A stretch of 64,000 nt of DNA from Flavobacterium sp. (GCF_031422135.1 NZ_JANOQD010000014.1:12969-76968), one strand, 5' to 3'. Shown: positions 2,213 through 24,771, counted from the first letter of the stretch. Numbers and translations: made by a program. The notes: generated by a model from the letters alone, not told the origin.

Positions 2213-2244
2213 CTTTACGCTCTTTACGGTTAAATCCTAAAATT

Positions 2245-2868
2245 ATGGAAACAGAAATAAAAACCCACTACAACTACCAGGAAGTAATCCTTTGGCTAGA
2301 AAAAAAAGGTGTCGAATTATATGGAAATCATTTCAAAATCCTTGAAACTGATCATCCCATAATTTACAAACTCATCGCCTATTTCCTAAAAGACGAAGCA
2401 ACTTGTTTTCAATATGGCATCAACCTCAATAAAGGAATTTTACTTTCTGGCCCAGTCGGTTGCGGTAAAACCTCATTATTGAATTTAATGAAATACCTAA
2501 CGCCAACCGAACATAAATTTTTCGTAAAACCGTGCCGAGACATAAGTTTTGAATTCATACAAGATGGCTACGAAATAATCCACAAATATAGCAAAGGCAA
2601 ACTCTATGAATCACAACCCAAAATAATTTGCTTCGATGATTTGGGAACAGAAAACAACCTAAAATACTTCGGAAACGAATGCAACGTAATGGCAGAAATT
2701 ATATTAAGTCGGTATGATATTTTCACTACTAAAAAAATCCTAACGCATATAACAACTAACCTTTCGGCAAGTGAAATTGAAACTCATTACGGAAACCGTG
2801 TACGCAGCAGAATGAGAGAAATGTTGAATTTAATATCATTCGATAGAACTATACTTGACAAACGATGA
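2245..2868 (+). CDS. DnaC/IstB-like P-loop ATPase (putative helicase loader)
   Basis: Walker A GPVGCGKT, Walker B ICFDDLGTE, THITTNLS...YGNRVRSRMREM. Confidence 0.8.
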   Translation: METEIKTHYNYQEVILWLEKKGVELYGNHFKILETDHPIIYKLIAYFLKDEATCFQYGINLNKGILLSGPVGCGKTSLLNLMKYLTPTEHKFFVKPCRDISFEFIQDGYEIIHKYSKGKLYESQPKIICFDDLGTENNLKYFGNECNVMAEIILSRYDIFTTKKILTHITTNLSASEIETHYGNRVRSRMREMLNLISFDRTILDKR

Positions 2869-3488
2869 ACCAAATAACTAACTTCTGGAATTACTTCAAA
2901 CAAAACAACTTTGTTTTTCTATTACTAAACGAAATCCCAAACGACGAACTAAAAATTCATTTTGATAAATTAATTGCATTATTACACAAGTATAACAAAG
3001 ATTTAGATTTAATCATAAAAAACAAAAGCAATGGAGCTGAACTAATCATTACTGCAAGTGGAAATCCCTATCTTTTCAAAGAAGTTGAATTAATATTACA
3101 TTATGCTCCAGTTGTAGAACGTTGGAAAATAATACCTTTTTTACAACCCGAAACAAATCTTTCTAAATACCAACAGGGTATAGATAAACCAATAGAAAAC
3201 TATGGAATTTCTTTAAAAATAAGCGAAATGTATTTCGAACCAATCAAAATTAAAAACAAACCTTTAGAAATAGGAATTAGAGTGTATATCAAAAACCATA
3301 TAGTTTACAAAGAGAACCCAAGATTAAGAGAAACTGTTTACATTCACCTGGAACACTTGCTAGGAGAAAAATGTTTTGCAAATGATATTAGCTTGATTGA
3401 TATTACTCAAATTCCAAGCAATTATAAAGAATTGAGATTTATTGAACTTTACAAATTAGGAGCTTATATTGAAAAAATTATAAATTAG
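2865..3488 (+). CDS. Conserved hypothetical protein
   Basis: 207-aa ORF overlapping the ATPase stop (ATGA); ELIITASGN...AP...W pattern. Confidence 0.7.
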   Translation: MNQITNFWNYFKQNNFVFLLLNEIPNDELKIHFDKLIALLHKYNKDLDLIIKNKSNGAELIITASGNPYLFKEVELILHYAPVVERWKIIPFLQPETNLSKYQQGIDKPIENYGISLKISEMYFEPIKIKNKPLEIGIRVYIKNHIVYKENPRLRETVYIHLEHLLGEKCFANDISLIDITQIPSNYKELRFIELYKLGAYIEKIIN

Positions 3489-3734
3489 CTTTCGTTAAAA
3501 AATATATTTTTTAGCCAAAAATTTATTGTGGTAAACGAGAGTAAATTTTGCTTATATCAATGAAATTAAAGTGATATTTTGATAAATTCACCGTCGTTTG
3601 CAATATATCCTGTTTGCGTTTTACTGTACATTGTGTAGTAAAACGCAAACAGGATATTCTTAATTTGATGAGTTTTGAAAAACGAATAATTACCAAGAGT
3701 AAATTACTTACTTTTATAAAAAATAAATTTATAA

Positions 3735-6602: not shown

Positions 6603-6726
6603 AAATTTAAATTAATCAAAAATAGATTCAATAAAATTAGTTACAGTTTAAGTTGAAAATCAATCAGAAAAATAAAAATAATCCAAAGGCATAGCTGTCT
6701 TGGCTAAAGCATAATAATTTACATTA

Positions 6727-9700
6727 ATGAAAAATGCGTTTATAGGTTATTCATATCAAGAACAAGTCACATCATTGATGTTGACAAAAATGGATGTTGA
6801 AAGAAGTATTATACAAATAGAAATTGAAGCCACGGTTGAACATAAATTTGATGATATAAAGTTAAATACCGAAGAAGCAGAATATTATTTTCAAATAAAG
6901 GATTTTGATAATATCTCACTTAATGATTTAATAGTTTCAGAAAATGAAATTTCAATCGCACGTAAAGTACATAAACTTTCTTCTTCGGGAACGAATGTTA
7001 TTTTTTTCAAAAATATCGAAATTACTCCAAATTGTATGGTCTTGGATATTGATGCTTACAAATTGAAAAACATCTATATTGTTTCTTTAAATCGTTTAGC
7101 AATAGACCAGAAAATTGAAGAATTATATAAAACAGACCATTTACGCAAATATATTATCGACCAATTTTTTAGTGAATGTCTTGATATCAGAAAGTTATTA
7201 ATTAAAAAAAGTGAATTACCTGTACTCAATGTTTTTAAAACTTATTTAATTGAGCCTACTGTTAATCTTACTATAGAAACATTAGAAATTGAAAACATTT
7301 TGCATATTGAAGGTAAACCAGGTGTTGGTAAAAGTCATCTAGTAGTAAATTTAGAAAACCAATATTCAAATAATATAGTTTATCGTTTTTGGGTTTCTAA
7401 CCAAGACAACGAACGTAACGAGCGATTACAGTATAATAATTTTGTGTTAGATTTCTCAAAGAAATTATTTAACAATTTAAAACCATATACTGAAATAGAA
7501 ATTATATCTAAAATTAAGGAACTGGAAAAAACAGTAATAATTGATGGATTAGATCACGTTGAAAATTATAATTCCAAAGATCTTGAAGCTTATATAGAAT
7601 TTATTGATAAGTTAAAAGAATCTTGTAAAGTAATTATTTTGAGTCGTCCTTTACAACGTGAGCTAAATTGGAAAAAACAATTGCTTGGTAATTGGAATCA
7701 GGAACAGACAAAAAAAGTATTAAATGAACTATATCACATTGAGGAATATACCAACATTGAAAAAATATACAAAATCAGTGATGGTTATCCTATTTTGGTA
7801 AGATACATTTCTGAGCAATATAAATTAAAAGGAAGTGTACCAGATTTTCAAACCTTTGATACAATTGATAAATATTATGAAAAGCTTATTGACGGACAAA
7901 AAGGGAAACTAGCACTTTCACTTTTTCTTTGCGTTCGCTCATACATAATGCAATCTGAAATAGAATTATTTTTAGAATCGATAAATTCATCTTTCGTAAT
8001 CGAATTTATAAAAGAACACCCATATCTTTTTGAACTACGACTGAACAGAATTTCACTTTTTCACGATAGTTTCATAACCTATCTACGTAAAATAAATACA
8101 AATTACAAAGCTATTGCATCAAATGTCAATTCAATAGTTTATTCTTCAATACTAATAGGAAATAAAAGATTTTTATCAAGGTTTAGGTATTTTGACTTTT
8201 CAATTGTAGACAAGAAAAATGTTGTTAAAAAATACTCTTCAATAACAGAATTTAGAATATTGATGAATGGTGTGATTGATTTTGAAGCCATACAGGACTT
8301 CTATAGTCAAATTCGCGAAACAATGCCTGAATTGTCTGCTAATGATTTAGAAATTAATGATTATTATGAATTATCGCTTATATTAAATATGGTATATCGT
8401 GATCATTTATCAACATTAAATGATTTTTATTTTACGTATTGTAAAGCGCTTTTATTTAATGGTTTTACTATTGAAGATATTACTAGTAATCGATATTTAT
8501 TTGGAATGATGTACTATATCGAAACAAATGATGGTTCCTTAATTTTAAATTTGAATAGCGACAGTCATTACGATACAAGTAGCTTTTATTATGACTTACA
8601 AAATGATGCTAATGAAGAAATATCATTTTTTGAAAAACATCGAAAGCCACTTTTAACATCAAAAATTAAAGATTTATTAAAAGATAAATCTAACTGGGAA
8701 TATAGAAAAATAATAACCTACATAATTGAAGATTTATTCATTCACGATTTAAGTAGAAAGAATTTTGAAGATTTGTATAACTCAATCAATCATTATGTAA
8801 ATGGGGATGAATACAAAGCAAATTCAATTTTAGAGAATTTTATTGTGGATTTTGGTATTGAAGACTATCAGGCAAGATGGATATTAAAAGAAGCCTATGA
8901 AAATTTATTAGCATTGGGTTATATCTCTGATAAAAATGACTATTTGAATCTTACACTCAAGGAGTATATTTTAAATAATAAAGATGTAGGAAGTTTTAAT
9001 ATGCGAGTTGAAATTTTAAATTACATACGTTTATCATTACATCACAATAAAAAAATTGACCTAGCTTCAATTTCACTTTTCTGGACAAAATATTATCAAC
9101 GGAAAGACCATACTTTGTACAGTTTATATGCTGCTTTACCTATTTTCGAAAAAAAGGGGTGTATAGAAATGTATGATTCACTTAGTTTAATTTATAAGAT
9201 TCAAGATGTTTCAGAAAAAGGGTATAGAGGACTTTTAGCAGATTATATTTTAGAAAAGACTCCTGAAGTTATCGAAAAGATTCTTGAATATTTCCATCCG
9301 TCAAACTTATCAATTTCGTGGTTTCTTTTGCCATCAGAATATATAAACGTATTACCTGACCTAGTTTATAATCTTGAAAAAGGAACTAAAATAAAATATC
9401 ACCGAACTAGTAGAAAAATTCCTTACGATGAAATCGAAAACCTACTCGACTCGAACAGACTTGAACAGTTTAGAAATGATTTAACTTTTTACAGATACAG
9501 TATTGATATTGAAGAAAAAAATCCTGCAATTAAAAAATTAAAAAGTTTAAAAATTCCATACCAAACATACAAAGACCAAAATTATAGTAGCAAGGAATCT
9601 TCAGCACTTTCGAGATTAGATCAAGGAATATTAGATGATAAAAATAAAGAAATGATTTTAGTAAAGAAATTAAAATCTTATGAAGTAGCTGCATTTAGCG

Positions 9701-9966
9701 ATGGAAATTATTCAGCACTTTCTAATCCAGACATATTTCAGGTTTTTGGTAAAGATGACATCAAAGCCAATATAAAAGAAATTATTTATAATGCAATGAC
9801 ATCAAGATTAAGAGCAATAGACCATTTCCATATTTTATGGCCATTCCCTGGTAATGTAATAAAACTTTTGGATGACAATGAAGTTGTAGATGATTTTGAG
9901 AGTTTATTTCAAAGCTTTGAGATTTTTTTAAATATGTCAATGTTTGATTTGAAAACAAATAGCTAA
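6727..9966 (+). CDS. PD-(D/E)xK nuclease + STAND ATPase with long helical C-terminus (Avs-like antiphage candidate)
   Basis: N-terminal NAFIGYSYQ...KFDDI...FQIK; Walker A GKPGVGKS; Walker B VIIDGLDH; sensor IILSRP. Confidence 0.72.
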   Translation: MKNAFIGYSYQEQVTSLMLTKMDVERSIIQIEIEATVEHKFDDIKLNTEEAEYYFQIKDFDNISLNDLIVSENEISIARKVHKLSSSGTNVIFFKNIEITPNCMVLDIDAYKLKNIYIVSLNRLAIDQKIEELYKTDHLRKYIIDQFFSECLDIRKLLIKKSELPVLNVFKTYLIEPTVNLTIETLEIENILHIEGKPGVGKSHLVVNLENQYSNNIVYRFWVSNQDNERNERLQYNNFVLDFSKKLFNNLKPYTEIEIISKIKELEKTVIIDGLDHVENYNSKDLEAYIEFIDKLKESCKVIILSRPLQRELNWKKQLLGNWNQEQTKKVLNELYHIEEYTNIEKIYKISDGYPILVRYISEQYKLKGSVPDFQTFDTIDKYYEKLIDGQKGKLALSLFLCVRSYIMQSEIELFLESINSSFVIEFIKEHPYLFELRLNRISLFHDSFITYLRKINTNYKAIASNVNSIVYSSILIGNKRFLSRFRYFDFSIVDKKNVVKKYSSITEFRILMNGVIDFEAIQDFYSQIRETMPELSANDLEINDYYELSLILNMVYRDHLSTLNDFYFTYCKALLFNGFTIEDITSNRYLFGMMYYIETNDGSLILNLNSDSHYDTSSFYYDLQNDANEEISFFEKHRKPLLTSKIKDLLKDKSNWEYRKIITYIIEDLFIHDLSRKNFEDLYNSINHYVNGDEYKANSILENFIVDFGIEDYQARWILKEAYENLLALGYISDKNDYLNLTLKEYILNNKDVGSFNMRVEILNYIRLSLHHNKKIDLASISLFWTKYYQRKDHTLYSLYAALPIFEKKGCIEMYDSLSLIYKIQDVSEKGYRGLLADYILEKTPEVIEKILEYFHPSNLSISWFLLPSEYINVLPDLVYNLEKGTKIKYHRTSRKIPYDEIENLLDSNRLEQFRNDLTFYRYSIDIEEKNPAIKKLKSLKIPYQTYKDQNYSSKESSALSRLDQGILDDKNKEMILVKKLKSYEVAAFSDGNYSALSNPDIFQVFGKDDIKANIKEIIYNAMTSRLRAIDHFHILWPFPGNVIKLLDDNEVVDDFESLFQSFEIFLNMSMFDLKTNS

Positions 9967-10147: not shown

Positions 10148-10948
10148 ATGGCAAAAAGCACCTATATTTCAGAAAACACAACACAAAATCAAATAGATTT
10201 TATGTTAATGCTTGATGATAATGAGTTAGACATCTTTACTTTAGAGGAAATCAAATCAATTGCATCAAGAGAATTTGAAAACATAAACGAGATAGTAGAA
10301 AATCTAGTACATAAAAAACTACTATCACGTATAGAACGAGGTAAATATTGTAGATACAATTTCAGGGACGAAAACGTAATTGGCTGCAAATTAACCGAAG
10401 ATTCCGCAATCGCTTATTGGTCCGCATTAAACAAACACGGTCTTACGGAACAATTTCCAAATTCTATTTTTATACAAACCACAAAAAGAAAATCAGACAA
10501 AAGTGTTTTTGGTGTTTTCTATAAATTCATTCAAATTTCAAAATCAAAAATAGTTGGAATAGAAAAATTAGGATTTGGAAACCACAGCTACCAAATGACC
10601 GATGTTGAAAAAACCATTATTGATTGTTTTGATTTACCACAATATTCCGGTGGTTATGCCGAATTAATTCGGGCATTCAATCAAGCAAACCTCAACAGTG
10701 AGAAAATGATTGCGTATTGTAAAGCCACAAAAAACATTGCTATTACAAAACGAATAGGATATTTGGCTGAATTACTAAATAAAAAAGGGATGAAATCATT
10801 TATAAACTTCGCATTAAAAGAAGTCAACGAAAAATACAATCTCTTTGACCCATTTGGTATAGAAGAAGGCGAATTTGTAAACAAATGGCGATTGAGATTA
10901 AATATAAGCAGCGAAGAAATTTTAAACATCTGTAACAAGCAATATTAA
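10148..10948 (+). CDS. abiEi: Type IV TA antitoxin / transcriptional regulator, AbiEi family
   Basis: wHTH with LSRIERGKY; IAYWSALNKHGLTEQ; TDVEKTIIDCFDLPQYSGG; coupled to the nucleotidyltransferase toxin gene. Confidence 0.88.
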   Translation: MAKSTYISENTTQNQIDFMLMLDDNELDIFTLEEIKSIASREFENINEIVENLVHKKLLSRIERGKYCRYNFRDENVIGCKLTEDSAIAYWSALNKHGLTEQFPNSIFIQTTKRKSDKSVFGVFYKFIQISKSKIVGIEKLGFGNHSYQMTDVEKTIIDCFDLPQYSGGYAELIRAFNQANLNSEKMIAYCKATKNIAITKRIGYLAELLNKKGMKSFINFALKEVNEKYNLFDPFGIEEGEFVNKWRLRLNISSEEILNICNKQY

Positions 10949-11805
10949 TGATTTTACAAAAAGAAATAGCCACCATTTCCGAACAACTAGGCGTATCGAA
11001 ATCAGTTATTGATAAAGATTGGATGTTGGGGCACTTTATAGCAGCAATATTCAACGAACCGGAACTAAAGGAAACATTAATTTTCAAAGGAGGAACTTGT
11101 TTGAAGAAATGTTGGTTTGAAGAATATAGATTTTCAGAAGATTTGGATTTTACTTCAAAGTCACAGGAATTTGAATTTACACAGAATCATTTAAAATTTA
11201 TCACAAAACATATTGAAGATAATACTGAAGTAAAAACACACATTGTTTCATTAAAACTATTACGATTTCAAGACAGACTAACAGGATATGAAGCTATAAT
11301 TAAGTTTTGGGGTGCAGACCATCCAAAAAATATAATGCCTACAACTCCAGACCGATGGCAGACAAAAATTAAAATAGAAATAATTCTCTATGAAGAAATG
11401 ATTTTTGAAGTTACAGAACAAGCAGTTAGCCACCCCTATTCTGACAACCTAGCATTAGTAAACGCAATACCTTGTTACAAAATCGAAGAAGTTTTGGCCG
11501 AAAAAATTAGAGCCTTAATCCAACGTTCTTATACAGCGCCTCGAGATTACTATGACATTTGGTACTTATCGAATAATTTCCCGGATTTAAACTGGATAGT
11601 GATTGTTGAAGCTTTTTACAAGAAAATGAAATTCAAGAATATTGAATTCACTGGAATTGACCAATTAATCAATCCAAAAAGTGATAAAGCTTTAAAAGGA
11701 GCGTGGAAAAACAGTTTGGGTCATCAAATTCAACCTGATAAATTACCCGAATATGAAGTAGTCAGAGAAAACCTTTTACTATTATTTGAGAGTATTTTTA
11801 AATAA
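10948..11805 (+). CDS. abiEii: AbiEii/AbiGii nucleotidyltransferase toxin
   Basis: LIFKGGTCLKKC...YRFSEDLDF; EEVLAEKIRAL...RDYYDIWYL. Confidence 0.92.
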   Translation: MILQKEIATISEQLGVSKSVIDKDWMLGHFIAAIFNEPELKETLIFKGGTCLKKCWFEEYRFSEDLDFTSKSQEFEFTQNHLKFITKHIEDNTEVKTHIVSLKLLRFQDRLTGYEAIIKFWGADHPKNIMPTTPDRWQTKIKIEIILYEEMIFEVTEQAVSHPYSDNLALVNAIPCYKIEEVLAEKIRALIQRSYTAPRDYYDIWYLSNNFPDLNWIVIVEAFYKKMKFKNIEFTGIDQLINPKSDKALKGAWKNSLGHQIQPDKLPEYEVVRENLLLLFESIFK

Positions 11806-11813
11806 TTTTTAAT

Positions 11814-13961
11814 ATGATATTAGTAGCTATATACATAAAAGAACATAAGTTTTTATTTGATAATCAACCTCAAATATTAAATTTTGGAGGTAGGTATTTT
11901 TATGACTTTGAATTCATTACTGATAATGAAATAACCATTTACAGGAAAAAAAATGAAAAATACATAGACAATTTTTACTCAAATGAAATTATTGCAATAT
12001 CTGGAATAGTTGGAGCAAATGGTGTGGGTAAAACAACTCTATTAAAAATAATCCATAAAAGTTATCAAGAAGATACACCTGTAATTTTTGTATACGAGAA
12101 ATTAACTGATGAAGGTATAGAATATTATATTGACAATAGAATTGGTATTATAAATGAAAATGGAAGTATTATTGAGGAATCTAAACCTATTGTTAAATTC
12201 TTTGAAAACATTGAGTACAATAAATTTGATTTCAGTTCATATACCACACTTTACTATTCACCTATTTACGACAAAAGCATTTCAGAATTTTATTCAATTT
12301 TAAACCTTGAAACTAAACATTCTGAAAAAACATTGGAGGAAATATATAGTGACAGTATATTAAAAGAAGTGATCTTTTTAAATAGTAAAGTGAGTGATAA
12401 AATTAAAATAATCTATCCAGATTTTCCAAATTATGATAACATAATTATAAAACCTAAAAAACTTCACAAAAGAGATTTTACTAAGGTTTATATAGATTCA
12501 AATTTGGGAAATCCAAATAAAGGCGAAACATTAAAACATACTATTGAAAGGGATTTAAGTGTTAAAAATTTTCCAAATCCGGTAAACCTTTTAAATAGTT
12601 ATTTATCAATATTAAAAAGTGGAAATGTGACGGATGCTTTAAAGGATATTTGGGATTTACCACAATACAAAAATGATAATGAGCAAAAATCTCATTTAAT
12701 CCACAACTCAAATAACTTCATAAAGAATATAGAAATAAGTATTTTATCATATCTTCTTCTAAATGATACTTTTGCAATAACTGATTTATCGGGTTCGTTT
12801 GATTTTGAAAAAATTTTAAAATCAAAAAGTTTTGAAGAAACCTTAAATTATATATTGGCAAAGTATATAGTCCAAACGGATAAAGGATTTTATAATAATC
12901 CAGAAGAAATTAAGATTGATGAGTATGAAAAACTAATCCAAAAATGTGATACTCTATACAATAAATTTACAGTTTTGAGCGGACTAGATGCTAAAATTAT
13001 TAAGGAGAAAATTACTATTGATATTAATGGTATCAAAGCAATAAAAGATTTTTATGATTTGATTAATAAAAATCAACACTTAATCCAGAATAATGAAGAA
13101 TATTCATACTTGAATCTTAATGTTAAAAATCAAGATACACAAGAAATACTTTCTGAAACAATTAAAGCATATACAAGGGTTAAAACATATTTTTCAAACA
13201 TCCCAATCGCAACAATTGATTTTATTGAAATTGAAGCTGATAAGAAATTATCCTTCGGAGAAAAATCGCTTTTAAACTTGTATTCAACTTTATATGAATT
13301 TACATTAGGAAAAAATCATACAAGAGAAAGTGAAAATTATTTATTGATTCTTGATGAAGCTGATTTAGGTTATCATCCACTATGGAAACGAAAATACATT
13401 GATGCTTTAAATAGAACACTTCCAGAAATATTTAATACTCTAAATGCTAAAGTTTTTGATAACATTAAAAAGAAAAAAGTAAATTCTGAACAGAAAAAAC
13501 CAAAAGTTCAAATAATTTTCACAACTCACGACCCTTTGACGCTATCTGATTTACCAAATAGTTCAATTGTTTTTCTAAAAAAAGTTAACCTTTTTAGTAA
13601 AGTATTAAAAATAGATGATGCCGAAAGACCTACAAAAACTTTCGGAGCCAACATCAGTAATTTACTTTCAGATTCATTTTTCATTAATGATGGTTTAATA
13701 GGTGATTTTGTTAAAGATAAGATTGAGAAAGTCATAATTGAGCTCAATAAATTACTTGATTTAAAAAACAATAATGTATATATCTATATAACAGAAGATA
13801 AAAAAATATTAATCAAGCAAATAATTGAAATAATTGATGAACCTATCATTAAAATGAAATTGATAGATATGTATAATACAATTTTTGAGGTTTCAATAGA
13901 AAATGAGATCAATGATTTGGAGGAAAGATTAAAATATTTAAGAAATCTAAAAAGTAATTAA
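11814..13961 (+). CDS. ABC/AAA_21-type ATPase, Septu PtuA-like (copy 1)
   Basis: Walker A GANGVGKT; signature LSFGE; Walker B/D-loop LILDEADLGYHP; H-loop TTHDPLTLSD; C-terminal TFGANI..LL. Confidence 0.85.
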   Translation: MILVAIYIKEHKFLFDNQPQILNFGGRYFYDFEFITDNEITIYRKKNEKYIDNFYSNEIIAISGIVGANGVGKTTLLKIIHKSYQEDTPVIFVYEKLTDEGIEYYIDNRIGIINENGSIIEESKPIVKFFENIEYNKFDFSSYTTLYYSPIYDKSISEFYSILNLETKHSEKTLEEIYSDSILKEVIFLNSKVSDKIKIIYPDFPNYDNIIIKPKKLHKRDFTKVYIDSNLGNPNKGETLKHTIERDLSVKNFPNPVNLLNSYLSILKSGNVTDALKDIWDLPQYKNDNEQKSHLIHNSNNFIKNIEISILSYLLLNDTFAITDLSGSFDFEKILKSKSFEETLNYILAKYIVQTDKGFYNNPEEIKIDEYEKLIQKCDTLYNKFTVLSGLDAKIIKEKITIDINGIKAIKDFYDLINKNQHLIQNNEEYSYLNLNVKNQDTQEILSETIKAYTRVKTYFSNIPIATIDFIEIEADKKLSFGEKSLLNLYSTLYEFTLGKNHTRESENYLLILDEADLGYHPLWKRKYIDALNRTLPEIFNTLNAKVFDNIKKKKVNSEQKKPKVQIIFTTHDPLTLSDLPNSSIVFLKKVNLFSKVLKIDDAERPTKTFGANISNLLSDSFFINDGLIGDFVKDKIEKVIIELNKLLDLKNNNVYIYITEDKKILIKQIIEIIDEPIIKMKLIDMYNTIFEVSIENEINDLEERLKYLRNLKSN

Positions 13962-13962
13962 A

Positions 13963-15123
13963 ATGATTAGCATAAGAGAATGTATATCAGAATCAGAATT
14001 AATTTCTGTACGAAAAAAACATATAGATTTTGTATCTTTTGAGGTTGAAAAGAGAATTGATTTTTATATCAATCTATTTGAATATTTGTCTTATTTACAA
14101 TTACACCCAAAAACTAGAACGGAAACAATAAAAAGCAAAGTAAACAAAATAATTCATCATTCTCAATATGAACCATTTATTAAAATTATTTTAATCAATG
14201 AGAAAAAATTTGATTATAGTAATCTTAAAAGAATAATCAAATACAAACCTGGTGCTGGGAATTTAACTATTGTAATTAATAGACTAAAAAAGCTAAAGAA
14301 AATTAGTAAATCAATTTTAGAAATAGACTTTAGCTATGGTAGTTTAATAAAAAGAAGATATTATGAATCCAGAAAACTCTTTTTCGCTCCGATAGACTTT
14401 TTACTAAAAAAAATATTTGACTATGAAAATTGGTTTTTAAATCTTGAACCTAATGGAGTTTGGGGACCATATCAATTAACTGAAAAACTAGGATTAAAAG
14501 TATGTTCATATTGTAATCGACAATATACTTTTAGTCTTTCAAAGGGTAAAAATAAAATTACAAGACCAGAATTGGATCATTTTTTACCGAAGAGTGGAAA
14601 TCCTCTATTGGCACTAAGTTTTTTTAATTTAATTCCTTCGTGTACAATTTGTAACAGAGATTGTAAAGGTAAAATTAATTTTAATTATCAAACTCATTTT
14701 TCTCCTTATGAACAAAATCCAAAACACGAATTAATTAAGTATGATTATTATCCAAAAACATATTTAGGTTCTATTGGTGAAACTGAAGAGTTTAGAATAT
14801 TTGTAAAAAATGACGGAGCGAAGCTTGACCCAGTATTGAAAGCAAAAATAGATGGTAATACTAAAGTTTTTGAATTAAATAAAATTATTAATGAACATAA
14901 AGATATAGTTCAGGAAATAATAAAAAAAAGACATATCTCAAATGATAACTACATAGATACATTGCAAAAAACATTCCCAGAAGCTAAACTTACACTCGAA
15001 GAAGCTTATAGGTTAGCTTATGGTAATTTTTATGGAGAAAAAGATTTTAATAAAAGACCTTTAGCTAAATTGACTAAAGACATAGCAGTTTCAATAGGTT
15101 CATTAAAAAAATATTCGAAATAA
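13963..15123 (+). CDS. HNH endonuclease, Septu PtuB-like, with N-terminal extension
   Basis: CSYC...ELDHFLPKSGNPLLALSFFNLIPSCTICN (zinc-binding HNH). Confidence 0.85.
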   Translation: MISIRECISESELISVRKKHIDFVSFEVEKRIDFYINLFEYLSYLQLHPKTRTETIKSKVNKIIHHSQYEPFIKIILINEKKFDYSNLKRIIKYKPGAGNLTIVINRLKKLKKISKSILEIDFSYGSLIKRRYYESRKLFFAPIDFLLKKIFDYENWFLNLEPNGVWGPYQLTEKLGLKVCSYCNRQYTFSLSKGKNKITRPELDHFLPKSGNPLLALSFFNLIPSCTICNRDCKGKINFNYQTHFSPYEQNPKHELIKYDYYPKTYLGSIGETEEFRIFVKNDGAKLDPVLKAKIDGNTKVFELNKIINEHKDIVQEIIKKRHISNDNYIDTLQKTFPEAKLTLEEAYRLAYGNFYGEKDFNKRPLAKLTKDIAVSIGSLKKYSK

Positions 15124-15125
15124 TT

Positions 15126-17126
15126 ATGAGTTTCCAAGTAATAGCAATAAAACCGCTTAAAGGCTGTAATAAAAAATATTTAAAACTATTGAATCCGGAT
15201 TGTACATATTATCTATACAGAGAGTTTACCATAAATGAGAATGATGATGCAATAGCTCTGGAAAAGAAAATTCCTGAAGAATTATACAATGTTGAGAGCT
15301 TAAATAATGAAAAAATAAAAATTAGTATTTCTGCAATATCTGGAAAAAATGGTTCTGGAAAGAGCACTTTAATTGAACTTTTATTTTTGGCAATCAACAA
15401 CTTTTCCGTTAAATTTAATAAGAAAAACCAAAAAGCTGACCTTACTTATGTAAATGATATTAAAGTAGAATTCTATTTTAAAACATACTCACGACAAAAG
15501 AATGAAGATGTTAGTAAATATTATAAGATTAAAGTATATGACAATGAGGTAACAATTCATCGATACAAAAAAAGTAAAAACGAATATGTGCTAAATTCAG
15601 TGCCAATTTATGAGTATAAATATAAACTTCAAGATTTTTTCTACACAGTAACAATTAACCATTCTCATTATGCATATAATACCGAAGATTTAGGTGACTG
15701 GTTAAATGGATTATTTCATAAAAATGACGCCTATCAAACTCCATTAGTCTTAAATCCTATGAGAACTAAAGGTGATTTCAAAATTGGCACAGAAAATCAT
15801 CTAGTAAAATCTAGGTTAATAGCTAATTTAGTAAAACCTACAGCTAAATTTAATTTCAAAAAACTAACAGATAATCTTGAGGCAATTGAACTTGACATTT
15901 CATTAAACGATACTAAAAGAGATAAAATTATTTATGAATTACCAACGGATGATCCACAAATTAACGAAAAAATAAAACTTAAAGACCTTAGTTTTAATGA
16001 GGATTTAATTTTTAAAAAAATCAATAAATATTATAAATTTTCTAATGATGATAATGATAAAATAAAGTTAAGAATAGCTTTCGATTATTTAAAATACAAA
16101 TTGGTTAATATTTGTGTAACCTATTCAGATTATGGTTTATATTTTGATAAAAAAAAGAAAAAATTTAATGAAGAATTATTAGATGAATATTTTAAAGAGC
16201 TTTTTATAAATGATGAAAGCCACATAACATTTAAGTTAAAACAAACACTAAATTATATCAGATTTAGCAAAAATAATATTGAAATTAAAGAGCAAAGAGT
16301 TTCACTTAAAACAATATCAGATTTTATTTCAAGAATTAAAGAAAATAAAACATATAATAAAATTAATACAATAGAATTAATTCCACCTCCATTTTTTAAT
16401 ACGGATATAATTTTAAATTCAGATAAAAATGAAAAAATAGAATTCAAAACATTGAGCTCTGGAGAAAAGCAAAAAATTTATTCAATAAGTTCAATTCTTT
16501 ATCATTTAAGTAATTTAGATTCCGTTAAAAATACTCGAACAAAAACCGCCTATACTAATGTCAATATAGTTCTAGAAGAGATTGAGCTATACTTCCATCC
16601 CGAAATGCAACGGAATTTTATAAATGATATTTTAGATAGTATTTCTGGAATAGAGCTTTATAAAATCAAAGCAATCAATTTTTGTTTTGTTAGTCATTCA
16701 CCATTTATACTTTCAGATATTCCAAAAGAAAATATTATGTTTTTAGAAAATATAGATAATAAAGCGGTACAAATTTCAGATGATAAATCAACATTTGGGG
16801 CTAATATACACGATTTGCTAAAAGATGGATTCTTTATGAAAAAGGGTTCAATTGGAGAATTTGCAAAAAATAGGATTACAAAAACTATTCAATGGCTAAA
16901 TTTAATCCGTGAAGAGAATGAAAAATCTATTAAAAATAATTTTGAATTGCTATTAAAAGAAAAAGAATATCATAAAAATATTATTGAAATTATTGACGAG
17001 CCAATAATAAAAACAAAATTATTAGAAATGTATTCGGAAATTTTCGGAAATGATGAACGCAAAAAGCATCTTGAAAATGAGATTGAAAGATTAGAGAATG
17101 AATTGAAAGTATTAAAAAATAGATAA
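15126..17126 (+). CDS. ABC/AAA_21-type ATPase, Septu PtuA-like (copy 2)
   Basis: Walker A GKNGSGKS; signature LSSGE; Walker B IVLEEIELYFHP; H-loop SHSPFILSD; C-terminal TFGANIHDLL. Confidence 0.85.
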   Translation: MSFQVIAIKPLKGCNKKYLKLLNPDCTYYLYREFTINENDDAIALEKKIPEELYNVESLNNEKIKISISAISGKNGSGKSTLIELLFLAINNFSVKFNKKNQKADLTYVNDIKVEFYFKTYSRQKNEDVSKYYKIKVYDNEVTIHRYKKSKNEYVLNSVPIYEYKYKLQDFFYTVTINHSHYAYNTEDLGDWLNGLFHKNDAYQTPLVLNPMRTKGDFKIGTENHLVKSRLIANLVKPTAKFNFKKLTDNLEAIELDISLNDTKRDKIIYELPTDDPQINEKIKLKDLSFNEDLIFKKINKYYKFSNDDNDKIKLRIAFDYLKYKLVNICVTYSDYGLYFDKKKKKFNEELLDEYFKELFINDESHITFKLKQTLNYIRFSKNNIEIKEQRVSLKTISDFISRIKENKTYNKINTIELIPPPFFNTDIILNSDKNEKIEFKTLSSGEKQKIYSISSILYHLSNLDSVKNTRTKTAYTNVNIVLEEIELYFHPEMQRNFINDILDSISGIELYKIKAINFCFVSHSPFILSDIPKENIMFLENIDNKAVQISDDKSTFGANIHDLLKDGFFMKKGSIGEFAKNRITKTIQWLNLIREENEKSIKNNFELLLKEKEYHKNIIEIIDEPIIKTKLLEMYSEIFGNDERKKHLENEIERLENELKVLKNR

Positions 17127-17129
17127 ACA

Positions 17130-18470
17130 TTGAGCAATCCCATAAACACCAATTTTAATTTCATTAAAATTCTAAATGAAGAGAAAACATACAAGTTGTT
17201 ATTTCCCGAAAGGGAAATAGGTCTTGCTATTGTTTTGATTTATGAGAAAATTAATGATGGTGTTTTTGAAGATGAAAAATTTACTGAAAATGATCTACAC
17301 GAAGCTTTTGAAAATATCTATAAAACAAAGGAACGTTATCCAAAAGAGGTTTATAGCAGTCACATTATGGACTTGCAGGAATATTTTTTAGATTACAACC
17401 AGGAAACCCAAAAGTATTTTTTCAAAGACTATGCTTCTAAATTTTGTAAACACGCTAAAGAAACTCTTATAGGTGCTTTTAATCCAACACGAATCCAAGA
17501 GATTTGTTCATTTCTTTCAAATTCATTATTAGAATCAGAGGATTCAACAGATAAACTTAAATTTTGGCTTAAAGAAACTTTTAAAAAATTTGAACCTGAT
17601 TTAAGAGAACAAATCGATTTTTTAGACCGACAAATTACCGAGTCGATTGAATTACTTAAAAAAGGAACCGATTTTACCAATCAAAATTTCCTTAATATAC
17701 TAGTAGCAACGGATTTTAGTATGAACAAAGCCCAAAAACACGTTGCGGAATTACGTTCGGCTTATTCTGAGACCAAAACAATAAGAGGTTTATTAGAACA
17801 AAAACAAAATCAAGATAATGAAATAAATGAGTTGATTTCGGAAGTGTATTCTTTTGTAAAATACATTAATGATCGATTGAGTTCAATTGATCGCAAATTA
17901 GATAGAATTCAACCTAAAATTAGACAACTATTTTCAACATTAAGCAAACCTTTATTAAGTTCAAAGATTGAAAAGTTCATTCATTTGTTATTGGATAAAA
18001 GTACTTTAGAATCTAACAGTGGCAATAAATCAATAGTGTTTCCACACAATATTATTTCACCACAAATTCATATTCCAACGCCACATTTTACAATAATTGA
18101 CAAAGACCGAGAATTATTTCCTTCCAAACCAAAAGAAAGAAAACAATATATTCAGAACGAAAAAGTAATTGAGGAAAACATTAAGAAAGCTCAAGATAAA
18201 ATAAACGAAATAGACACTATTAGAAATTGGGAAAAATATATTTTATCAGAAATAGAACTAAAAGGGAGTATCAAATTATCAGAAGTCTTCTTTAAAATTA
18301 TTGAAGAAAGTAAAAGCAGTCAAATTGCTGTGAGCGTAACTTTTAACATTATTAAATATGTTTACAGTAATAAAGACAAATATAAATTGGAGATTGATAA
18401 AGAATTAGAAACGAATAGCGAATTTAAAAACATTGCATTATGGAAAATGAAAATAATAAAATTAGTTTAA
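17130..18470 (+). CDS. jetA: Wadjet JetA/MksF-like kleisin subunit (TTG start)
   Basis: 446-aa helical protein, first of a four-gene block before MksE-like, SMC and Toprim genes; assigned mainly by position. Confidence 0.65.
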   Translation: MSNPINTNFNFIKILNEEKTYKLLFPEREIGLAIVLIYEKINDGVFEDEKFTENDLHEAFENIYKTKERYPKEVYSSHIMDLQEYFLDYNQETQKYFFKDYASKFCKHAKETLIGAFNPTRIQEICSFLSNSLLESEDSTDKLKFWLKETFKKFEPDLREQIDFLDRQITESIELLKKGTDFTNQNFLNILVATDFSMNKAQKHVAELRSAYSETKTIRGLLEQKQNQDNEINELISEVYSFVKYINDRLSSIDRKLDRIQPKIRQLFSTLSKPLLSSKIEKFIHLLLDKSTLESNSGNKSIVFPHNIISPQIHIPTPHFTIIDKDRELFPSKPKERKQYIQNEKVIEENIKKAQDKINEIDTIRNWEKYILSEIELKGSIKLSEVFFKIIEESKSSQIAVSVTFNIIKYVYSNKDKYKLEIDKELETNSEFKNIALWKMKIIKLV

Positions 18471-19087
18471 GTAGTTTCTTGTACAGTGATAATTCAGAGG
18501 ATTTATTTGCTTCAATTGATTATTTATTAAAAGATGGTGTACACTTTCAAAAAGAAGGAAAACAAATAAATCAATATAACTTTATTTCACAAAATGAAGA
18601 AAGTCTTAAACTGTATTATAACACCTTTTTCAAAGTTGATTTAGTTAAAGGAGGCGAAGACAATGCAAGCTATTATTATTTAGATTTTATAAATAATGAT
18701 CGAGGAAATATCTCTGATAAACACAGATATATGCTCAAAAGTGAGTATGTAATTATTGGATTTCTAATTTATAAAATTATGTTTATTGACCGAGAATTTG
18801 ATTTGAATTCTGTTCAAAAATTAAAAGAAAAAATCCGGCTTGAATGTGAAGATTACAAACAAGGTATTTATACATTAATTGCTAAATCAAAGAATACAAC
18901 TCCTGGTAATTACAATGATGATATAATAGATAAAACAATTCAATCGGCTCTTGAAGAATTTAAAAAAATTGGTTGGATAACATTAGATAAAGACGAGTTT
19001 CATACATTACCTGCATTCGACAGATTGCTAAAAGTATATGAAGAGTACATTATAAATATAGAGGAAACACTAAACGAACTGAAATGA
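18440..19087 (+). CDS. jetB: Wadjet JetB/MksE-like KITE subunit
   Basis: 215 aa; C-terminal wHTH (ALEEFKKIGWI...LPAFDRL); lies directly before the SMC-like gene. Confidence 0.72.
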   Translation: MENENNKISLSSFLYSDNSEDLFASIDYLLKDGVHFQKEGKQINQYNFISQNEESLKLYYNTFFKVDLVKGGEDNASYYYLDFINNDRGNISDKHRYMLKSEYVIIGFLIYKIMFIDREFDLNSVQKLKEKIRLECEDYKQGIYTLIAKSKNTTPGNYNDDIIDKTIQSALEEFKKIGWITLDKDEFHTLPAFDRLLKVYEEYIINIEETLNELK

Positions 19088-22000
19088 AAGACTATCCACT
19101 AATTAAAAGACTATCAACTTTAGGAATAGTACACCATCAGGGATTTGATTATGATTTTAATCCATTCAGAACTGATTTTGTTGGCGAAGGCGGTGCTGGT
19201 AAAAGTATGATTTCTGATATTTTACAATTAATTTGTGTTGGTACTTCGGCTTTTCATTCTCCTACAAAAGGTACAAGTACTAGAGAACCTAAAACTATGG
19301 TTTTAAGAACTGATGGTAATGGAACCGATATGGGTTATGCTTTTATAAATGTTGAGGTAGAGAAAAATAAATTTATAGTTATTGGTATTTATTTAGAAAG
19401 TGCTGGTACTTCATATATGTTTATTATTCAAGAGGGTAATAATTTTGATGACGACACTCAATTGATGCCTTTTGAAACTGTTTTAGGGTATTCCGATTTT
19501 CTCAAAAACAATCAAATATTACCAATTCAAAATTTGAAGGAACACATCAGTAATACTTTACAACTAACTTGTGAATCTTGGCATAAGACTTCAAATTATC
19601 ATAAAATTCTTTTCAAAAATGAAATATTGCCTATTGATTTGTCAATCAGTAATAAAACGTTAGACAATTATGCCAAAATTATTCAAGCATTTTCTAGAGA
19701 ATCTTTGGATATGAATAAGAGTGAAAAATTACAAAGTTTTTTATTTGGTGAGGAAAAAGAAAAGGAATTACTTGAAAAATTTAATCAAACCGTTAAAGAA
19801 CTGAATGGTGACAACAAAGAATTTGATAAAAACTTAAACGAAATAGAATTACTCACCGATAAGCAAAACGCGTTAAGTGAATTGTTGAAATTGAGAATTG
19901 AAAAAGATAAAAACGAGAAGATTTTCTTGTTAGCATCTTTTAACAATTATTCAAAAGAAGTTACTGATTCAGAAAATGAAATAAGAGAGAAAATTAATCT
20001 TTATGAAAATAGTTCCAAAATACTCATCCAATTAAAAACAAATGTCCAAGAAAAAATAATTTCAACAAATGAAGAAATTAAAATAATAGATCCAAAATGG
20101 GAAACTGCATTTAAAGAAAAAAATAAATGGGAAGAATGTGAAAACAAATTAAAAAAGTTTTTCTCTTGGTTACAGGATTTTAATTGTTCTGAAAAAGAAA
20201 TTTTAAAAGAAAAATATAATAAGCACCATCAAAATAAACTTCAAATAACACAATTAAGAGAATTGACTGAAAAGTTAAAATCAAAAAACATTTTGACTTT
20301 TTTTACCAATGAAAATTTAAAGGGTAAAAATGCACTTGTACAAGCTAATTCAAAAACAGAAGTTTACAAAAAAGAGCTAGAAATTAAAAACAAATTAAAA
20401 GCTTTAAATAATATTGAAGATAAAAAATCATTAGCACATTGGGCTTTAAATCAAACTAAAAAATTAGATTTATTCCAGGAAAGTATAATTCATAAATACC
20501 ACAATGAAAATATAAAAGTAGATGCTCCATCAGATGTTTTATTAAAATATATTCCAGAACCAAATCAATTAATAGAAAATCTTAAAATATCAAATAAAAA
20601 TGACAAAGGTTTTTGGATTGATCTAAATGGTTTAATGGAACACGTAACTTTAATTAAATCACCAATTTTTGACAAGGAAGATAGAGAAGAAATTAAGGAA
20701 TATTTTCAGAAACAAACTTGTACGATAGAAGAAGACATTTCAAATTTAGAGAGAAAATTATCAAACATTGAATTGATTATAGAAGTTTTAGAACAATTAG
20801 AAAATCCTGATGAATATGTATTTGCTTTTAATTCAAATATAGGACTAGATGAACAACTTGAAAATCACGAAATGTATGATGTTTCAAATATCATTTTTGA
20901 TGACTATTTTGATGCTTTTTCTAGAGAAAAAGAAATCAATGAACAGCTTACAAATGCAAAAACAAATTTCAAAAAATTAGAAGACGAAAAGCGAAAATTG
21001 GACAATCTACGCATTAATTTAGAGCGTGAATTAGAATCATTTTTAACACCAATAATTATTGATGAAATTGATGATTACAAAAGTAAATATAATTTTGCAT
21101 CAACTAAAAATCTTGATTTAGAGAGCTTAAATAAAGAATTAAGCGATGCTGAAGATTATTACATAGAATTGAAAAAAGCATATAATACTCAAATAAGTAA
21201 TAACAATCAAACAGCTTCTCTAAAGGAAATAGAATTAAAAATTTTAAAAATTACACATAAAAAAAATGAGATTTATAGTCAAAATCCTAATCTATTTACA
21301 GAAGAAATAGTAATGGATATTTATGATGATAATGAAATTAATGAATTAGAAAAAAAATCTATAGATGCTAATAATGATTATATTTCTAACTACAATTTTG
21401 TAGTCTATACTTTTCTTAAACAGAAGATTAATCATTATAAAGACACTGGCGATTTCAGTCCTTTATGCAGAGAAATTTTACCTAAAGAAATATTTGATGA
21501 AAAAGATTTATTAGAAGAAGATATAATTGAAAACATTTCCAATTACTTACGCAATATAAATATTAAAAATAGAAAGCTAAATAGCCGAAAGCTTCAAAAA
21601 TTAAGTGAGATTATAGACGATGTTTCAAATGAAGTAAGTAGTCAATTAATGGATATAAGAATAATAAGTAATTTTTTGAATTCAGAAGAAAAAAAAATAA
21701 CTGGCGGTCACAAGGTCGATTTAGATGTAATATACGATAATGTTTTCAAAAAAGAATGGATGAATAATTTCACTGATGAGATTAATAAAGATATTCAATA
21801 CGGTATGGATGAATCATTATTTGAAACTCTTAAAACATTTTCCACAGAATTAGAAAGTTTTCCAACGTTGGAAGAAAAATTAAAAGAAGCATTTTATCGA
21901 ACTGGTGGAACAAGAGCAAACAAACTAGAAGTTAGGGACTTACTGAATCCAAAATCATATTATGGGTTGAAGTTTTCAATTAAATCAGCACAAGGGAACA

Positions 22001-22323
22001 AAACTGCTGGTAGCACAAGTCAAACATATTCAGCAATAGCACTTTTATGTATGGCAAAGTTATCTTTAATCGATAAAACTTCAAAATCCAAAATAAGAAA
22101 AGGAATTCGTTATATGGCTATTGATGAGGCAGAAGGTCTTGGAAGTAATTTTGATATGCTATATAATATTGCAAAAGCAAATGATTACCAAATTTTATCT
22201 TTATCGATAAATCCAAATAAAATTGATGCAGAAAATCAAAATATTTATTTGTTGCACAATAGTTTAGAAGATGAAAATATAAACTACACTCCTGTGCCAA
22301 TTTTTGGATCATCAAACAATTAA
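19084..22323 (+). CDS. jetC: Wadjet JetC/MksB SMC-like ATPase
   Basis: N-terminal Walker A GEGGAGKS, long coiled coil, signature-like GSTSQ, Walker B MAIDEA. Confidence 0.8.
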   Translation: MKDYPLIKRLSTLGIVHHQGFDYDFNPFRTDFVGEGGAGKSMISDILQLICVGTSAFHSPTKGTSTREPKTMVLRTDGNGTDMGYAFINVEVEKNKFIVIGIYLESAGTSYMFIIQEGNNFDDDTQLMPFETVLGYSDFLKNNQILPIQNLKEHISNTLQLTCESWHKTSNYHKILFKNEILPIDLSISNKTLDNYAKIIQAFSRESLDMNKSEKLQSFLFGEEKEKELLEKFNQTVKELNGDNKEFDKNLNEIELLTDKQNALSELLKLRIEKDKNEKIFLLASFNNYSKEVTDSENEIREKINLYENSSKILIQLKTNVQEKIISTNEEIKIIDPKWETAFKEKNKWEECENKLKKFFSWLQDFNCSEKEILKEKYNKHHQNKLQITQLRELTEKLKSKNILTFFTNENLKGKNALVQANSKTEVYKKELEIKNKLKALNNIEDKKSLAHWALNQTKKLDLFQESIIHKYHNENIKVDAPSDVLLKYIPEPNQLIENLKISNKNDKGFWIDLNGLMEHVTLIKSPIFDKEDREEIKEYFQKQTCTIEEDISNLERKLSNIELIIEVLEQLENPDEYVFAFNSNIGLDEQLENHEMYDVSNIIFDDYFDAFSREKEINEQLTNAKTNFKKLEDEKRKLDNLRINLERELESFLTPIIIDEIDDYKSKYNFASTKNLDLESLNKELSDAEDYYIELKKAYNTQISNNNQTASLKEIELKILKITHKKNEIYSQNPNLFTEEIVMDIYDDNEINELEKKSIDANNDYISNYNFVVYTFLKQKINHYKDTGDFSPLCREILPKEIFDEKDLLEEDIIENISNYLRNINIKNRKLNSRKLQKLSEIIDDVSNEVSSQLMDIRIISNFLNSEEKKITGGHKVDLDVIYDNVFKKEWMNNFTDEINKDIQYGMDESLFETLKTFSTELESFPTLEEKLKEAFYRTGGTRANKLEVRDLLNPKSYYGLKFSIKSAQGNKTAGSTSQTYSAIALLCMAKLSLIDKTSKSKIRKGIRYMAIDEAEGLGSNFDMLYNIAKANDYQILSLSINPNKIDAENQNIYLLHNSLEDENINYTPVPIFGSSNN

Positions 22324-22327
22324 AAGT

Positions 22328-23278
22328 ATGAAAAAAATTGAATGGAAACATCTAAAAGGATTGCATCAGCTTTATAAATCAAAACAAACAAAGTTAAAAA
22401 TAACTAACAATGATTTTATTAATCAGGTCATTTTAAAACAAAAGAAACTAATAAAATTTAAGGTTGGAAATCATTCTATTATCGAAGCATCATCAAGATT
22501 TAAGGAGTATTACGAGCAGGAATTTTTAGAAACCTATGAATACTACAATAATTTCTTTGAGAAGTCGGGAATAGAAAACGATGCTAAAAAATCTTTTGAT
22601 GATGAAGATTTAAAAGCATTAATGTTTGTTTTTTATAACAAAGAGGAATTAAAAAAAAATGTAACAACAGAGAAAAAATTATCTGCTTTAATTTATAAAA
22701 ATCAAAATTCTAAATACTTATCTAATAAATTAAGTGTTAAAAATGCAGTTTTAAGAATATTAGAACTTGATGAATTTCCAGAAAAAGACCCCAAAAATAA
22801 TCAATGGAGATTTGTAGTTGATTGCCTTAATCCAAAAGTTATTGTGCTTTGTGAGAATCTTGATTGTCTAAAAGTTCCGTTAGAATATAAAAATAATAAT
22901 ATCGAATTATGGTATGTTGGTGGTAATAATACCACACCATTAGAAGACATTTCTCAAGATAAATTAAAACTTCCAATATATTATTTTTGTGATTGGGATT
23001 ATAACGGATTACTGATATATTCAAATGTCAAACAAATATTTAGATCCAAAGGAATTGAAGTCAAAATAATTCTACCACAAACACAAGAAATCGCAATCGA
23101 AGTTGGTGTCAAACATCATAAAAGTAAATGGAATGATAATGAATTCTCAAATTTGAATAAGAATGATTTTTCATTACAAGAAATCGAATTTATCAATCAA
23201 TTAATTTCGGAAAATAAATGGATTGAAGAAGAATCTTTAGATTTAATCAAACTACTGAAAAACGATAATATCATTTAA
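22328..23278 (+). CDS. jetD: Wadjet JetD/MksG Toprim nuclease
   Basis: Toprim motifs VLCENL, YVGGNN and YFCDWDYNG (DxD); follows the SMC gene; ATG at 22328 preferred over the overlapping 22304 start. Confidence 0.8.
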   Translation: MKKIEWKHLKGLHQLYKSKQTKLKITNNDFINQVILKQKKLIKFKVGNHSIIEASSRFKEYYEQEFLETYEYYNNFFEKSGIENDAKKSFDDEDLKALMFVFYNKEELKKNVTTEKKLSALIYKNQNSKYLSNKLSVKNAVLRILELDEFPEKDPKNNQWRFVVDCLNPKVIVLCENLDCLKVPLEYKNNNIELWYVGGNNTTPLEDISQDKLKLPIYYFCDWDYNGLLIYSNVKQIFRSKGIEVKIILPQTQEIAIEVGVKHHKSKWNDNEFSNLNKNDFSLQEIEFINQLISENKWIEEESLDLIKLLKNDNII

Positions 23279-24347: not shown

Positions 24348-24771
24348 ATACCCTTTCCGAAGACGACCATCTTCCAAATCAATTCTCATTACTTCAGATT
24401 AAATCCGATTAAACAAGAACATTCCGATTGGATATTCAAAACAAAAAATAAAAAAAAAGAGAGCAAAGATAAGTTCCAGGTATTCAGAAAAAAAAGTTCA
24501 AGCCCTAAGGGTTTTAAAAAAAATCTCCACCCTTAACGGTTCGCATCAACATTCAATTCCGATTTCACGCTCATACTTCCGATGATGTATCGGGTAGTAT
24601 TTTTTTTAAAAAACTTTTTTATCTGAAACCTTCCGCTTGAACAGACGGCTTTCTTTTTTTCTTTTTTTCTTTTGAAAAATTTTATAGGTCGAGCGTAGCG
24701 AGGCACACCTACATTTCAAGAGAAAATCCGCGAAAAATTGAAAATCTAATCAATTTTTAAAGCCGAAAGTT

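Follow-up and report, generated by a model that had tools for sequence, protein, structure and literature searches.

Does a gene for an HNH nuclease that lies between two genes for ATP-binding cassette (ABC) ATPases belong to one defence system with two ATPases, or does it form a complete two-gene system that merely has an additional ATPase as its neighbour? This question was raised by a stretch of Flavobacterium sp. DNA of 64,000 nucleotides (GCF_031422135.1, NZ_JANOQD010000014.1:12969-76968; hereafter the window, meaning the whole 64-kb stretch that was analysed), in which three open reading frames (ORFs) of 715, 386 and 666 amino acids (aa) follow each other on the + strand. They were designated A1, B and A2:

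11814..13961, + strand: A1, leading ABC ATPase, 715 aa, clade alpha of PDC-M62A (ORF, PADLOC, tree)
13963..15123, + strand: B, HNH nuclease, 386 aa, PDC-M62B (ORF, PADLOC)
15126..17126, + strand: A2, trailing ABC ATPase, 666 aa, clade beta of PDC-M62A (ORF, PADLOC, tree)

The A1/B junction reads TAA-a-ATG and the B/A2 junction TAA-tt-ATG, leaving 1 and 2 nucleotides (nt), respectively, between the genes. Both the ORFs and the junctions agree with an initial annotation of the window, made from the sequence alone, which had described an HNH nuclease inserted with gaps of 1 and 2 nt between ABC-type ATPases of 715 and 666 aa. As set out below, we regard the three genes as a single co-expressed anti-phage module, i.e. 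as a version of the Septu-like candidate system PDC-M62 that has three genes, and assign this reading a probability of about 0.62.

Family assignment of A1, B and A2

Septu consists of the ABC ATPase PtuA and the HNH nuclease PtuB, as described by Doron in 2018, and is represented by the structures 8EE4, 8EEA and 8SUX. In the window, Pfam signatures of the ABC/AAA_21 type were found in A1 and A2, together with a weak HNH match in B. The PADLOC hidden Markov models (HMMs) recognized A1 as PDC-M62A (PDLC04733, 8.7e-64; PDLC04734, 7.2e-59, full length), A2 likewise as PDC-M62A (PDLC04737, 1e-50, also full length), and B as PDC-M62B (PDLC04740, 7.8e-141, covering residues 1-383 of 386). The PADLOC models for Septu itself matched partially, with 1e-13 to 1e-18 for PtuA against the two ATPases and 1.6e-11 for PtuB against B. 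With the NCBIfam PtuA model NF041760 the ATPases scored 26 and 42 bits at a cut-off of 500, and B was weakly matched by TIGR02646 (20 bits, cut-off 52) and by the PtuB model NF041761 (19 bits, cut-off 150). Its match in the PDB was 9n69_F, a TIGR02646 family protein (3.9e-4).

Profiles of the two ATPase clades, alpha and beta, which are defined in the phylogenetic section, both led to PtuA structures in the PDB. The alpha profile matched the PtuA of retron Ec78 (1.3e-16) and the Septu PtuA 8EE4 (3.3e-13), and the beta profile matched 8EE4 (7e-11), which was also reached with the single A2 sequence (3.1e-5); AriA and OLD came next behind PtuA for both profiles. Foldseek searches with the AlphaFold models of A1 and A2 gave as best matches PtuA chains from the complexes of retron I-A, Eco7 and Septu with a probability of 1.0 and TM-scores of 0.2-0.38, the latter being this low because of the large inserts in A1 and A2. 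Profile and fold matches therefore define the module as a distant relative of Septu which is catalogued as a two-gene candidate, and on these comparisons A1 and A2 appear to be relatives of PtuA at the level of the superfamily and not of the equivalog. The kinship with Septu proposed in the initial annotation holds inasmuch as PtuA is the best PDB relative by both profile and fold, but it is a distant one, far under the NCBIfam cut-offs. In a survey of Bacillus cereus, 203 PDC-M62 calls coincide with ‘Septu’ calls of DefenseFinder.

Conservation of the ATPase-HNH-ATPase triplet

About 14 non-redundant loci, whose flanks differ, showed the same arrangement; they came from several Flavobacterium species, Elizabethkingia anophelis and metagenomes, and thus the conserved synteny that the initial annotation had suggested searching for does exist. 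Triplets near that of the window were those of F. luminosum, F. psychrophilum and E. anophelis and those of the loci L039/40, L036, L041, L113/114, L115 and L116. In F. psychrophilum the A2-type protein was present on 164 contigs. A second group of trailing ATPases, with 43-47% identity to A2, occurred in F. frigidarium, F. orientale and three further Flavobacterium species. The clade of A2 orthologues comprised more than 50 clusters at an identity of at least 56%, and all of its members whose context was read represented a trailing ATPase behind an A-B pair. Across genera A2 persisted from 93% down to 45% identity, and in every locus its ORF was intact over the full length.

The distance between B and A2 ranged from −14 to +9 nt in 15/15 triplets, as compared with +357 nt in L109, the single locus with a tandem A-B-A-B arrangement. 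The genes upstream of the triplets differed from locus to locus (AbiE, NucS-like, DnaJ/MerR, a Gabija-like pair, HsdR or AbiGi), and so did those downstream (Wadjet-like, a small HNH, DUF2971, GmrSD, an integrase or none). As the flanks change while the B-A2 junction stays between −14 and +9 nt, the three genes constitute a conserved unit.

A hidden fourth conserved gene behind A2 was also considered and rejected, since the genes that follow A2 are mutually unrelated, with the exception of a small HNH gene in the sister loci L036 and L041. The products of this gene (L036, 9014-9823; L041, 4366-5250) are proteins of 269 and 294 aa with an N-terminal HNH that are 69% identical to each other and unrelated to M62B; in L041 a DUF2971/PDC-S31-like gene is inserted ahead of it. 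The small HNH gene could be either a fourth gene particular to this lineage or an independent restriction gene of a type IV-like kind.

Phylogeny, mosaic inheritance and selection

In a tree of 52 ATPases a deep division separated the clades alpha and beta, each of which had 100% support in the Shimodaira–Hasegawa-like approximate likelihood ratio test (SH-aLRT). All 10 leading ATPases were placed in alpha along with 10 ATPases from pairs, and all 11 trailing ATPases in beta along with 21 from pairs. The trailing ATPases were confined to one beta subclade of 14 members (96% support), which also included three pair ATPases, and the approximately unbiased test did not reject that the trailing state arose only once (p=0.22). 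The leading ATPases, in contrast, were scattered over alpha with at least three forced changes, and their topology conflicted with that of the trailing ATPases. Stable clades, for which the initial annotation had proposed a tree, were thus obtained, the leading ATPases belonging without exception to alpha and the trailing ones to a single subclade of beta; A1 and A2 accordingly belong to two deep clades of PDC-M62A, which does away with the idea that they are recent paralogues.

In a tree of 42 B proteins, the partners of alpha and beta ATPases were fully intermixed, indicating that nuclease and ATPase recombine freely across the alpha/beta division. Because HNH proteins have mixed between both types in evolution, a single HNH is plausibly able to serve an alpha as well as a beta ATPase. 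To judge from this intermixing, the nucleases and ATPases of PDC-M62 would often have changed partners, and their docking interface would be a generic one.

Within the group of the window, however, the topology of B mirrored that of A2, and the identity matrices of both proteins gave the same two groups, one consisting of the window, L032, L001 and L113 and the other of L115, L116, L035 and L039. Between the window and Elizabethkingia, identity amounted to 43% for A1, 69% for B and 65% for A2. The locus L116 proved to be a mosaic of the two, with an A1 of the window type (85-87%) followed by a B (87-88%) and an A2 (86%) of the Elizabethkingia type, and with an atypical gap of 73 nt located exactly at the A1-B junction. 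As the groups of B and A2 agree while the A1 of L116 switches, B and A2 represent a co-inherited core next to which A1 has been exchanged, and this reverses the roles implied in the initial annotation.

A2 had ratios of nonsynonymous to synonymous substitution (dN/dS, Nei-Gojobori) of 0.08-0.15, B of 0.11-0.12 and A1 of 0.10-0.18, as compared with 0.07-0.08 for JetA, encoded in the Wadjet-like cluster downstream. All three genes of the triplet are under purifying selection. Compared across loci, A1 is its fast-evolving, exchangeable component.

Sequence motifs and structural models

The motifs of the three proteins are located as follows:

12012..12035, + strand: A1 Walker A, GANGVGKT, residues 67-74 (G67, G70, G72 and K73 invariant in the alignment)
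13341..13358, + strand: A1 Walker B, LLILDE, residues 510-515, canonical D-E (D514 and E515 invariant)
13638..13682, + strand: A1 family-wide C-terminal motif, TFGANISNLLSDSFF, residues 609-623 (motif table)
14494..14673, + strand: B HNH core, CSYCN...DH...NLIPSCTICN, residues 178-237 (alignment)
15342..15365, + strand: A2 Walker A, GKNGSGKS, residues 73-80 (invariant in alignments)
16566..16580, + strand: A2 Walker B, IVLEE, residues 481-485, Asp replaced by Glu (motif table)
16791..16835, + strand: A2 family-wide C-terminal motif, TFGANIHDLLKDGFF, residues 556-570 (motif table)

The HNH core CxxC...DH...N...CxxCN was intact in 42/42 aligned B proteins, and Walker A, the LSxGE signature, the H-loop and both C-terminal motifs were intact in every ATPase aligned. 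When A1 and A2 were compared by BLASTP, only the C-terminal ∼250 aa (36% identity, E=1e-20) and the Walker A region were aligned. The C-terminal motifs quoted for A1 and A2 in the initial annotation are present in both proteins, and the C-terminal module that it described for the two as diverged paralogues is indeed common to them; it is, however, a property of the entire PDC-M62A family, throughout which the motifs TFGANI..DLL.D.FF and II.IIDEPIIK.KL.EMY are conserved, and not of this pair.

In the AlphaFold2 model of A1 (overall predicted local distance difference test score, pLDDT, 70), residues 609-633 have a pLDDT below 50 and precede helices at 631-714. The A2 model (pLDDT 84) falls below 50 at residues 563-568, and its helices at 578-665 make up a five-helix C-terminal extension. 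In both models the invariant TFGANI motif is thus part of a low-confidence linker directly before a C-terminal extension of four to five helices. The A2 motif TFGANIHDLLKDGFF aligns with residues ∼383-396 of E. coli PtuA.

The Walker B variant LEE, which stands in place of the usual LDE, was found in 11/11 trailing ATPases and in their three nearest relatives from pairs, and also in several distant pairs and scattered beta ATPases. It was tried as a marker of the trailing role and had to be rejected, as ordinary PDC-M62 pairs carry LEE as well. Stand-alone Septu PtuA has been reported to be without ATPase activity (PMC12819146).

Genomic surroundings of the triplet

The triplet is part of a low-GC stretch at ∼3-23 kb of the window (∼0.22-0.30 vs 0.30-0.40 elsewhere) with co-directional defence genes. 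The neighbouring features in and next to this island are:

3735-6602, + strand: 955-aa TPR protein
6727-9966, + strand: 1079-aa P-loop protein with NPHP3_N/AAA_22 (STAND-like) matches
10148-11805, + strand: AbiEi/AbiEii pair, type IV toxin-antitoxin/abortive infection (PADLOC, 5.2e-96 and 1.5e-88)
17130-23278, + strand: Wadjet/MksBEFG-like cluster of four genes encoding 446, 215, 1079 and 324 aa
24772-25194, + strand: DUF6943 protein (Pfam, 3.7e-56), just beyond the high-GC boundary of the island

The AbiEi/AbiEii pair ends 8 nt before A1, and the Wadjet-like cluster begins 3 nt after A2. Since these neighbours are equally tight, the short gaps within the triplet constitute little proof that its genes belong together. 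An AbiE pair also precedes the triplet of F. psychrophilum, and the triplets of other species are without it. The Wadjet-like cluster was only weakly recognized (Pfam MksE, 3.2e-19; Pfam MukB N-terminal, 2.6e-5; PADLOC JetD3, 9.3e-6), and PADLOC gave no matches for the JetA-, JetB- or JetC-like proteins of the window; it may be a divergent Wadjet subtype that is recurrently linked to PDC-M62. No PADLOC model matched the 955-aa TPR protein or the 1079-aa P-loop protein, and the two may constitute an uncatalogued defence gene or gene pair of the Avs/STAND type.

No terminator-like site was detected within the triplet block, the sole terminator-like hairpin between 9.9 and 24.8 kb being that at 24578-24594, and the three genes could well be co-transcribed. 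The promoter scan, which yielded fewer matches than were obtained in shuffled sequence, was uninformative because the sigma-70 consensus on which it was based does not apply to Bacteroidota. As had been stated in the initial annotation, reverse transcriptase (RT) was absent: no RT domain was found in any ORF flanking the triplet. Searches with Rfam gave no family at gathering score in positions 1-30000 of the window, and no tRNA was located near the triplet. A retron or another RNA partner was therefore ruled out.

The same genome also contains, on another contig (C33; locus L061, 4270-7051), an ordinary PDC-M62 pair made up of an alpha ATPase of 608 aa and an HNH protein of 321 aa, showing that the triplet and a plain pair coexist in a single genome.

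Alternative explanations

The alternative that survives best, although we regard it as unlikely, is that of two neighbouring modules, in which A1 and B form a complete pair and the beta ATPase is a separate element that has lost its own HNH and merely travels along. A2 alone would then act, for example, as a regulator, decoy or sensor in another context, or would use an effector encoded elsewhere. The observations that weigh against a single three-gene module are gathered here. Beta ATPases usually sit upstream of an HNH gene of their own and a tandem A-B-A-B locus exists, so that the triplet could represent two systems of which one has lost its nuclease. The C-terminal modules of A1 and A2 did not show co-variation within loci (diagonal 0.434 vs off-diagonal 0.439, p=0.68, at low power), and thus gave no signal of co-adaptation to a common HNH. 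This result speaks neither for nor against a shared B, as the C-terminal module is near-invariant family-wide. The whole island is tightly packed, which makes the short gaps unspecific. The trees were derived from quick searches with SH-aLRT support only, and PDC-M62 is itself one of the candidate systems of PADLOC and not an established one. Finally, most PDC-M62 loci are simple A→B pairs, and the triplet is thus a minority lineage, found so far within the Flavobacteriales only. Among 401 Bacteroidota genomes M62B was detected in 13, and of 15 loci only that of the window was a triplet; 401 genomes of the family contained an M62A-type ATPase in 20 cases, with two adjacent copies in the genome of the window alone; and of 401 species of the genus 56 carried an M62A-type ATPase and four a triplet, all of these frequencies being lower bounds since three candidates were scored per genome. 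A metagenome sample of ∼45 loci included no triplet and one tandem double pair (L109). The metagenome scan with the trailing-clade alignment relied on degenerate patterns that were too generic and yielded distant relatives of 27-40% identity, and it serves as a background sample of pairs. The plasmid collection gave only distant matches and the phage collection none.

The tandem locus L109 (metagenomic, 1622-8137) consists of a pair with an ATPase of 639 aa and an HNH protein of 315 aa, a 357-nt spacer and a second pair of 707 and 399 aa, and may plausibly be seen as a precursor state of the triplet.

Three observations nevertheless lead us to favour the three-part model over two neighbouring systems. 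First, the members of the trailing subclade are strictly placed right behind the HNH gene in all ∼14 non-redundant loci that were read, while their surroundings vary. Second, B and A2 were inherited together through the recombination event that replaced A1. Third, A2, which has no nuclease of its own, has kept a C-terminal extension of the type that docks the HNH, and has done so under purifying selection. Furthermore, an ABC ATPase without an effector would have no obvious defence output.

It is highly improbable that A2 is an accessory ATPase of the downstream Wadjet-like JetABCD genes. The same four genes come after A2, with distances of −29 to +18 nt, in at least seven loci (those of the window, F. 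luminosum, F. psychrophilum and E. anophelis, and L039, L115 and L116), and in L051 a related cluster (JetB 65%, JetC 48%, JetD 58%) directly precedes a PDC-M62 pair. The neighbour in L051, however, is a complete A-B pair, and eight triplets (L036, L041, L042, L043, L044, L045, L113/114 and L117) are free of Wadjet genes, among them a close relative of the window locus (L113/L114, A2 78%) as well as more remote ones. This candidate role was rejected, since co-occurrence with Jet genes is not obligate.

That A2 is decaying and without function, left over from a tandem duplication or from another system, as the existence of tandem pairs and the Asp to Glu change in its Walker B motif might suggest, was likewise dismissed as most improbable, given that A2 is full length in all loci with a dN/dS as low as those of B and JetA, that its other catalytic motifs are all intact and it is retained over the entire range of identities across genera, and that Glu at this position is shared by ordinary pairs that look functional.

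A model for the three-gene module

In the solved complexes of retron Ec78 and Septu, a single PtuB is held by its helical C-terminal domain, which a PtuA dimer encloses between its C-terminal extensions to give a nine-helix bundle, and the PtuA oligomer restrains the nuclease until infection or a change in ATP frees PtuB (PMC12819146). If the single module that we favour works along similar lines, B would be a PtuB-like HNH effector and A1 and A2 deeply diverged ABC ATPases of the PtuA type, both of which would assemble with B and, by analogy to PtuAB, dock this single nuclease through their conserved C-terminal extensions. B would probably be held inactive in an ATP-bound oligomer, with A1 and A2 forming either separate oligomers or a mixed one. 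A cue of infection perceived through the lineage-specific inserts might then release or activate B, as might a drop in ATP, and the freed nuclease would cut nucleic acid, stop phage replication and abort the infection. B and A2 would provide the constant core of such a module and A1 its diversifying, exchangeable module for sensing or specificity. The initial annotation had further suggested that two ATPases might broaden the recognition of triggers, or that one of them might take the place of the retron as inhibitor; both remain conjecture.

We consider it somewhat better than an even chance that the locus is, in particular, a dual-ATPase module of the Septu type, in which two PtuA-like ATPases of ancient divergence, an exchangeable alpha ATPase for ‘specificity’ and a conserved beta ATPase that has given up its nuclease, are combined with one HNH effector. 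If so, this would be an architecture with two sensors (or a sensor and a brake) and one effector, whose alpha component is shuffled between loci by recombination.

The conserved alpha-B-beta triplet, its dedicated subclade of trailing ATPases and the exchangeable leading ATPase are new, and no description of them was found in the literature searched. The initial annotation had gone further in proposing a distinct system; this applies to the third gene and to the alpha/beta split, but not to the Septu-like A+B pair, which is already known as PDC-M62 in PADLOC and as Septu in DefenseFinder. While Septu and retron I-A are understood structurally as one ATPase oligomer clamping one HNH, the triplet is a natural and conserved version in which two markedly different ATPases go with one nuclease. 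It allows one to ask how ATPase sensors specify their triggers and whether different sensor oligomers share one nuclease, and to study swaps of sensor modules in the arms race, of which the L116 mosaic is an example. The finding that the ‘A’ component of PDC-M62 comprises two deep clades freely exchanging HNH partners should moreover improve annotation. The module is common in F. psychrophilum, for which phage therapy in aquaculture is being explored, and may influence phage susceptibility there.

Comparison with known systems

PARIS, with the ABC ATPase AriA and the Toprim nuclease AriB, and systems of the OLD/Gabija type have in common with the triplet the logic of an ATPase sensor that restrains a nuclease effector. 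Their effector is, however, a Toprim and not an HNH protein, they possess a single ATPase, and the similarity to them is far weaker than that to PtuA.

The retrons of type I-A (Ec78/Eco7 and Ec83; ‘Septu type II’ in PADLOC), which consist of RT, non-coding RNA (ncRNA), PtuA and PtuB, are like the triplet a three-component elaboration of PtuAB in which a third partner modulates the PtuAB pair, and their PtuA chains are the top structural matches of A1 and A2. Their third component is an RT encoded upstream, whereas that of the triplet is a second ATPase downstream of the nuclease, with no RT or ncRNA found.

Septu itself exhibits the same pairing of ATPase and HNH, the same gene order and, according to the models, the same helical C-terminal extension of the ATPase. 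It differs from the triplet in having one ATPase gene instead of two, and identity in structural alignments is as low as ∼12-13%. The ATPases of the triplet are 200-250 aa longer, with large inserts, and B has 386 aa compared with ∼220 aa for PtuB.

The closest counterpart is PDC-M62, a candidate system of PADLOC-DB v2 with the genes A and B. The triplet resembles it in its matches to the A and B HMMs, in the A→B order and in the overlapping or abutting genes, and relatives are located inside type I restriction–modification loci and defence islands. PDC-M62 is defined by two genes, with all ATPases lumped together as ‘A’, while the triplet adds a second ATPase of the M62A type 2 nt after B; the window locus thus goes beyond the two-gene composition of PDC-M62, with a further conserved gene next to the pair by which that system is defined.

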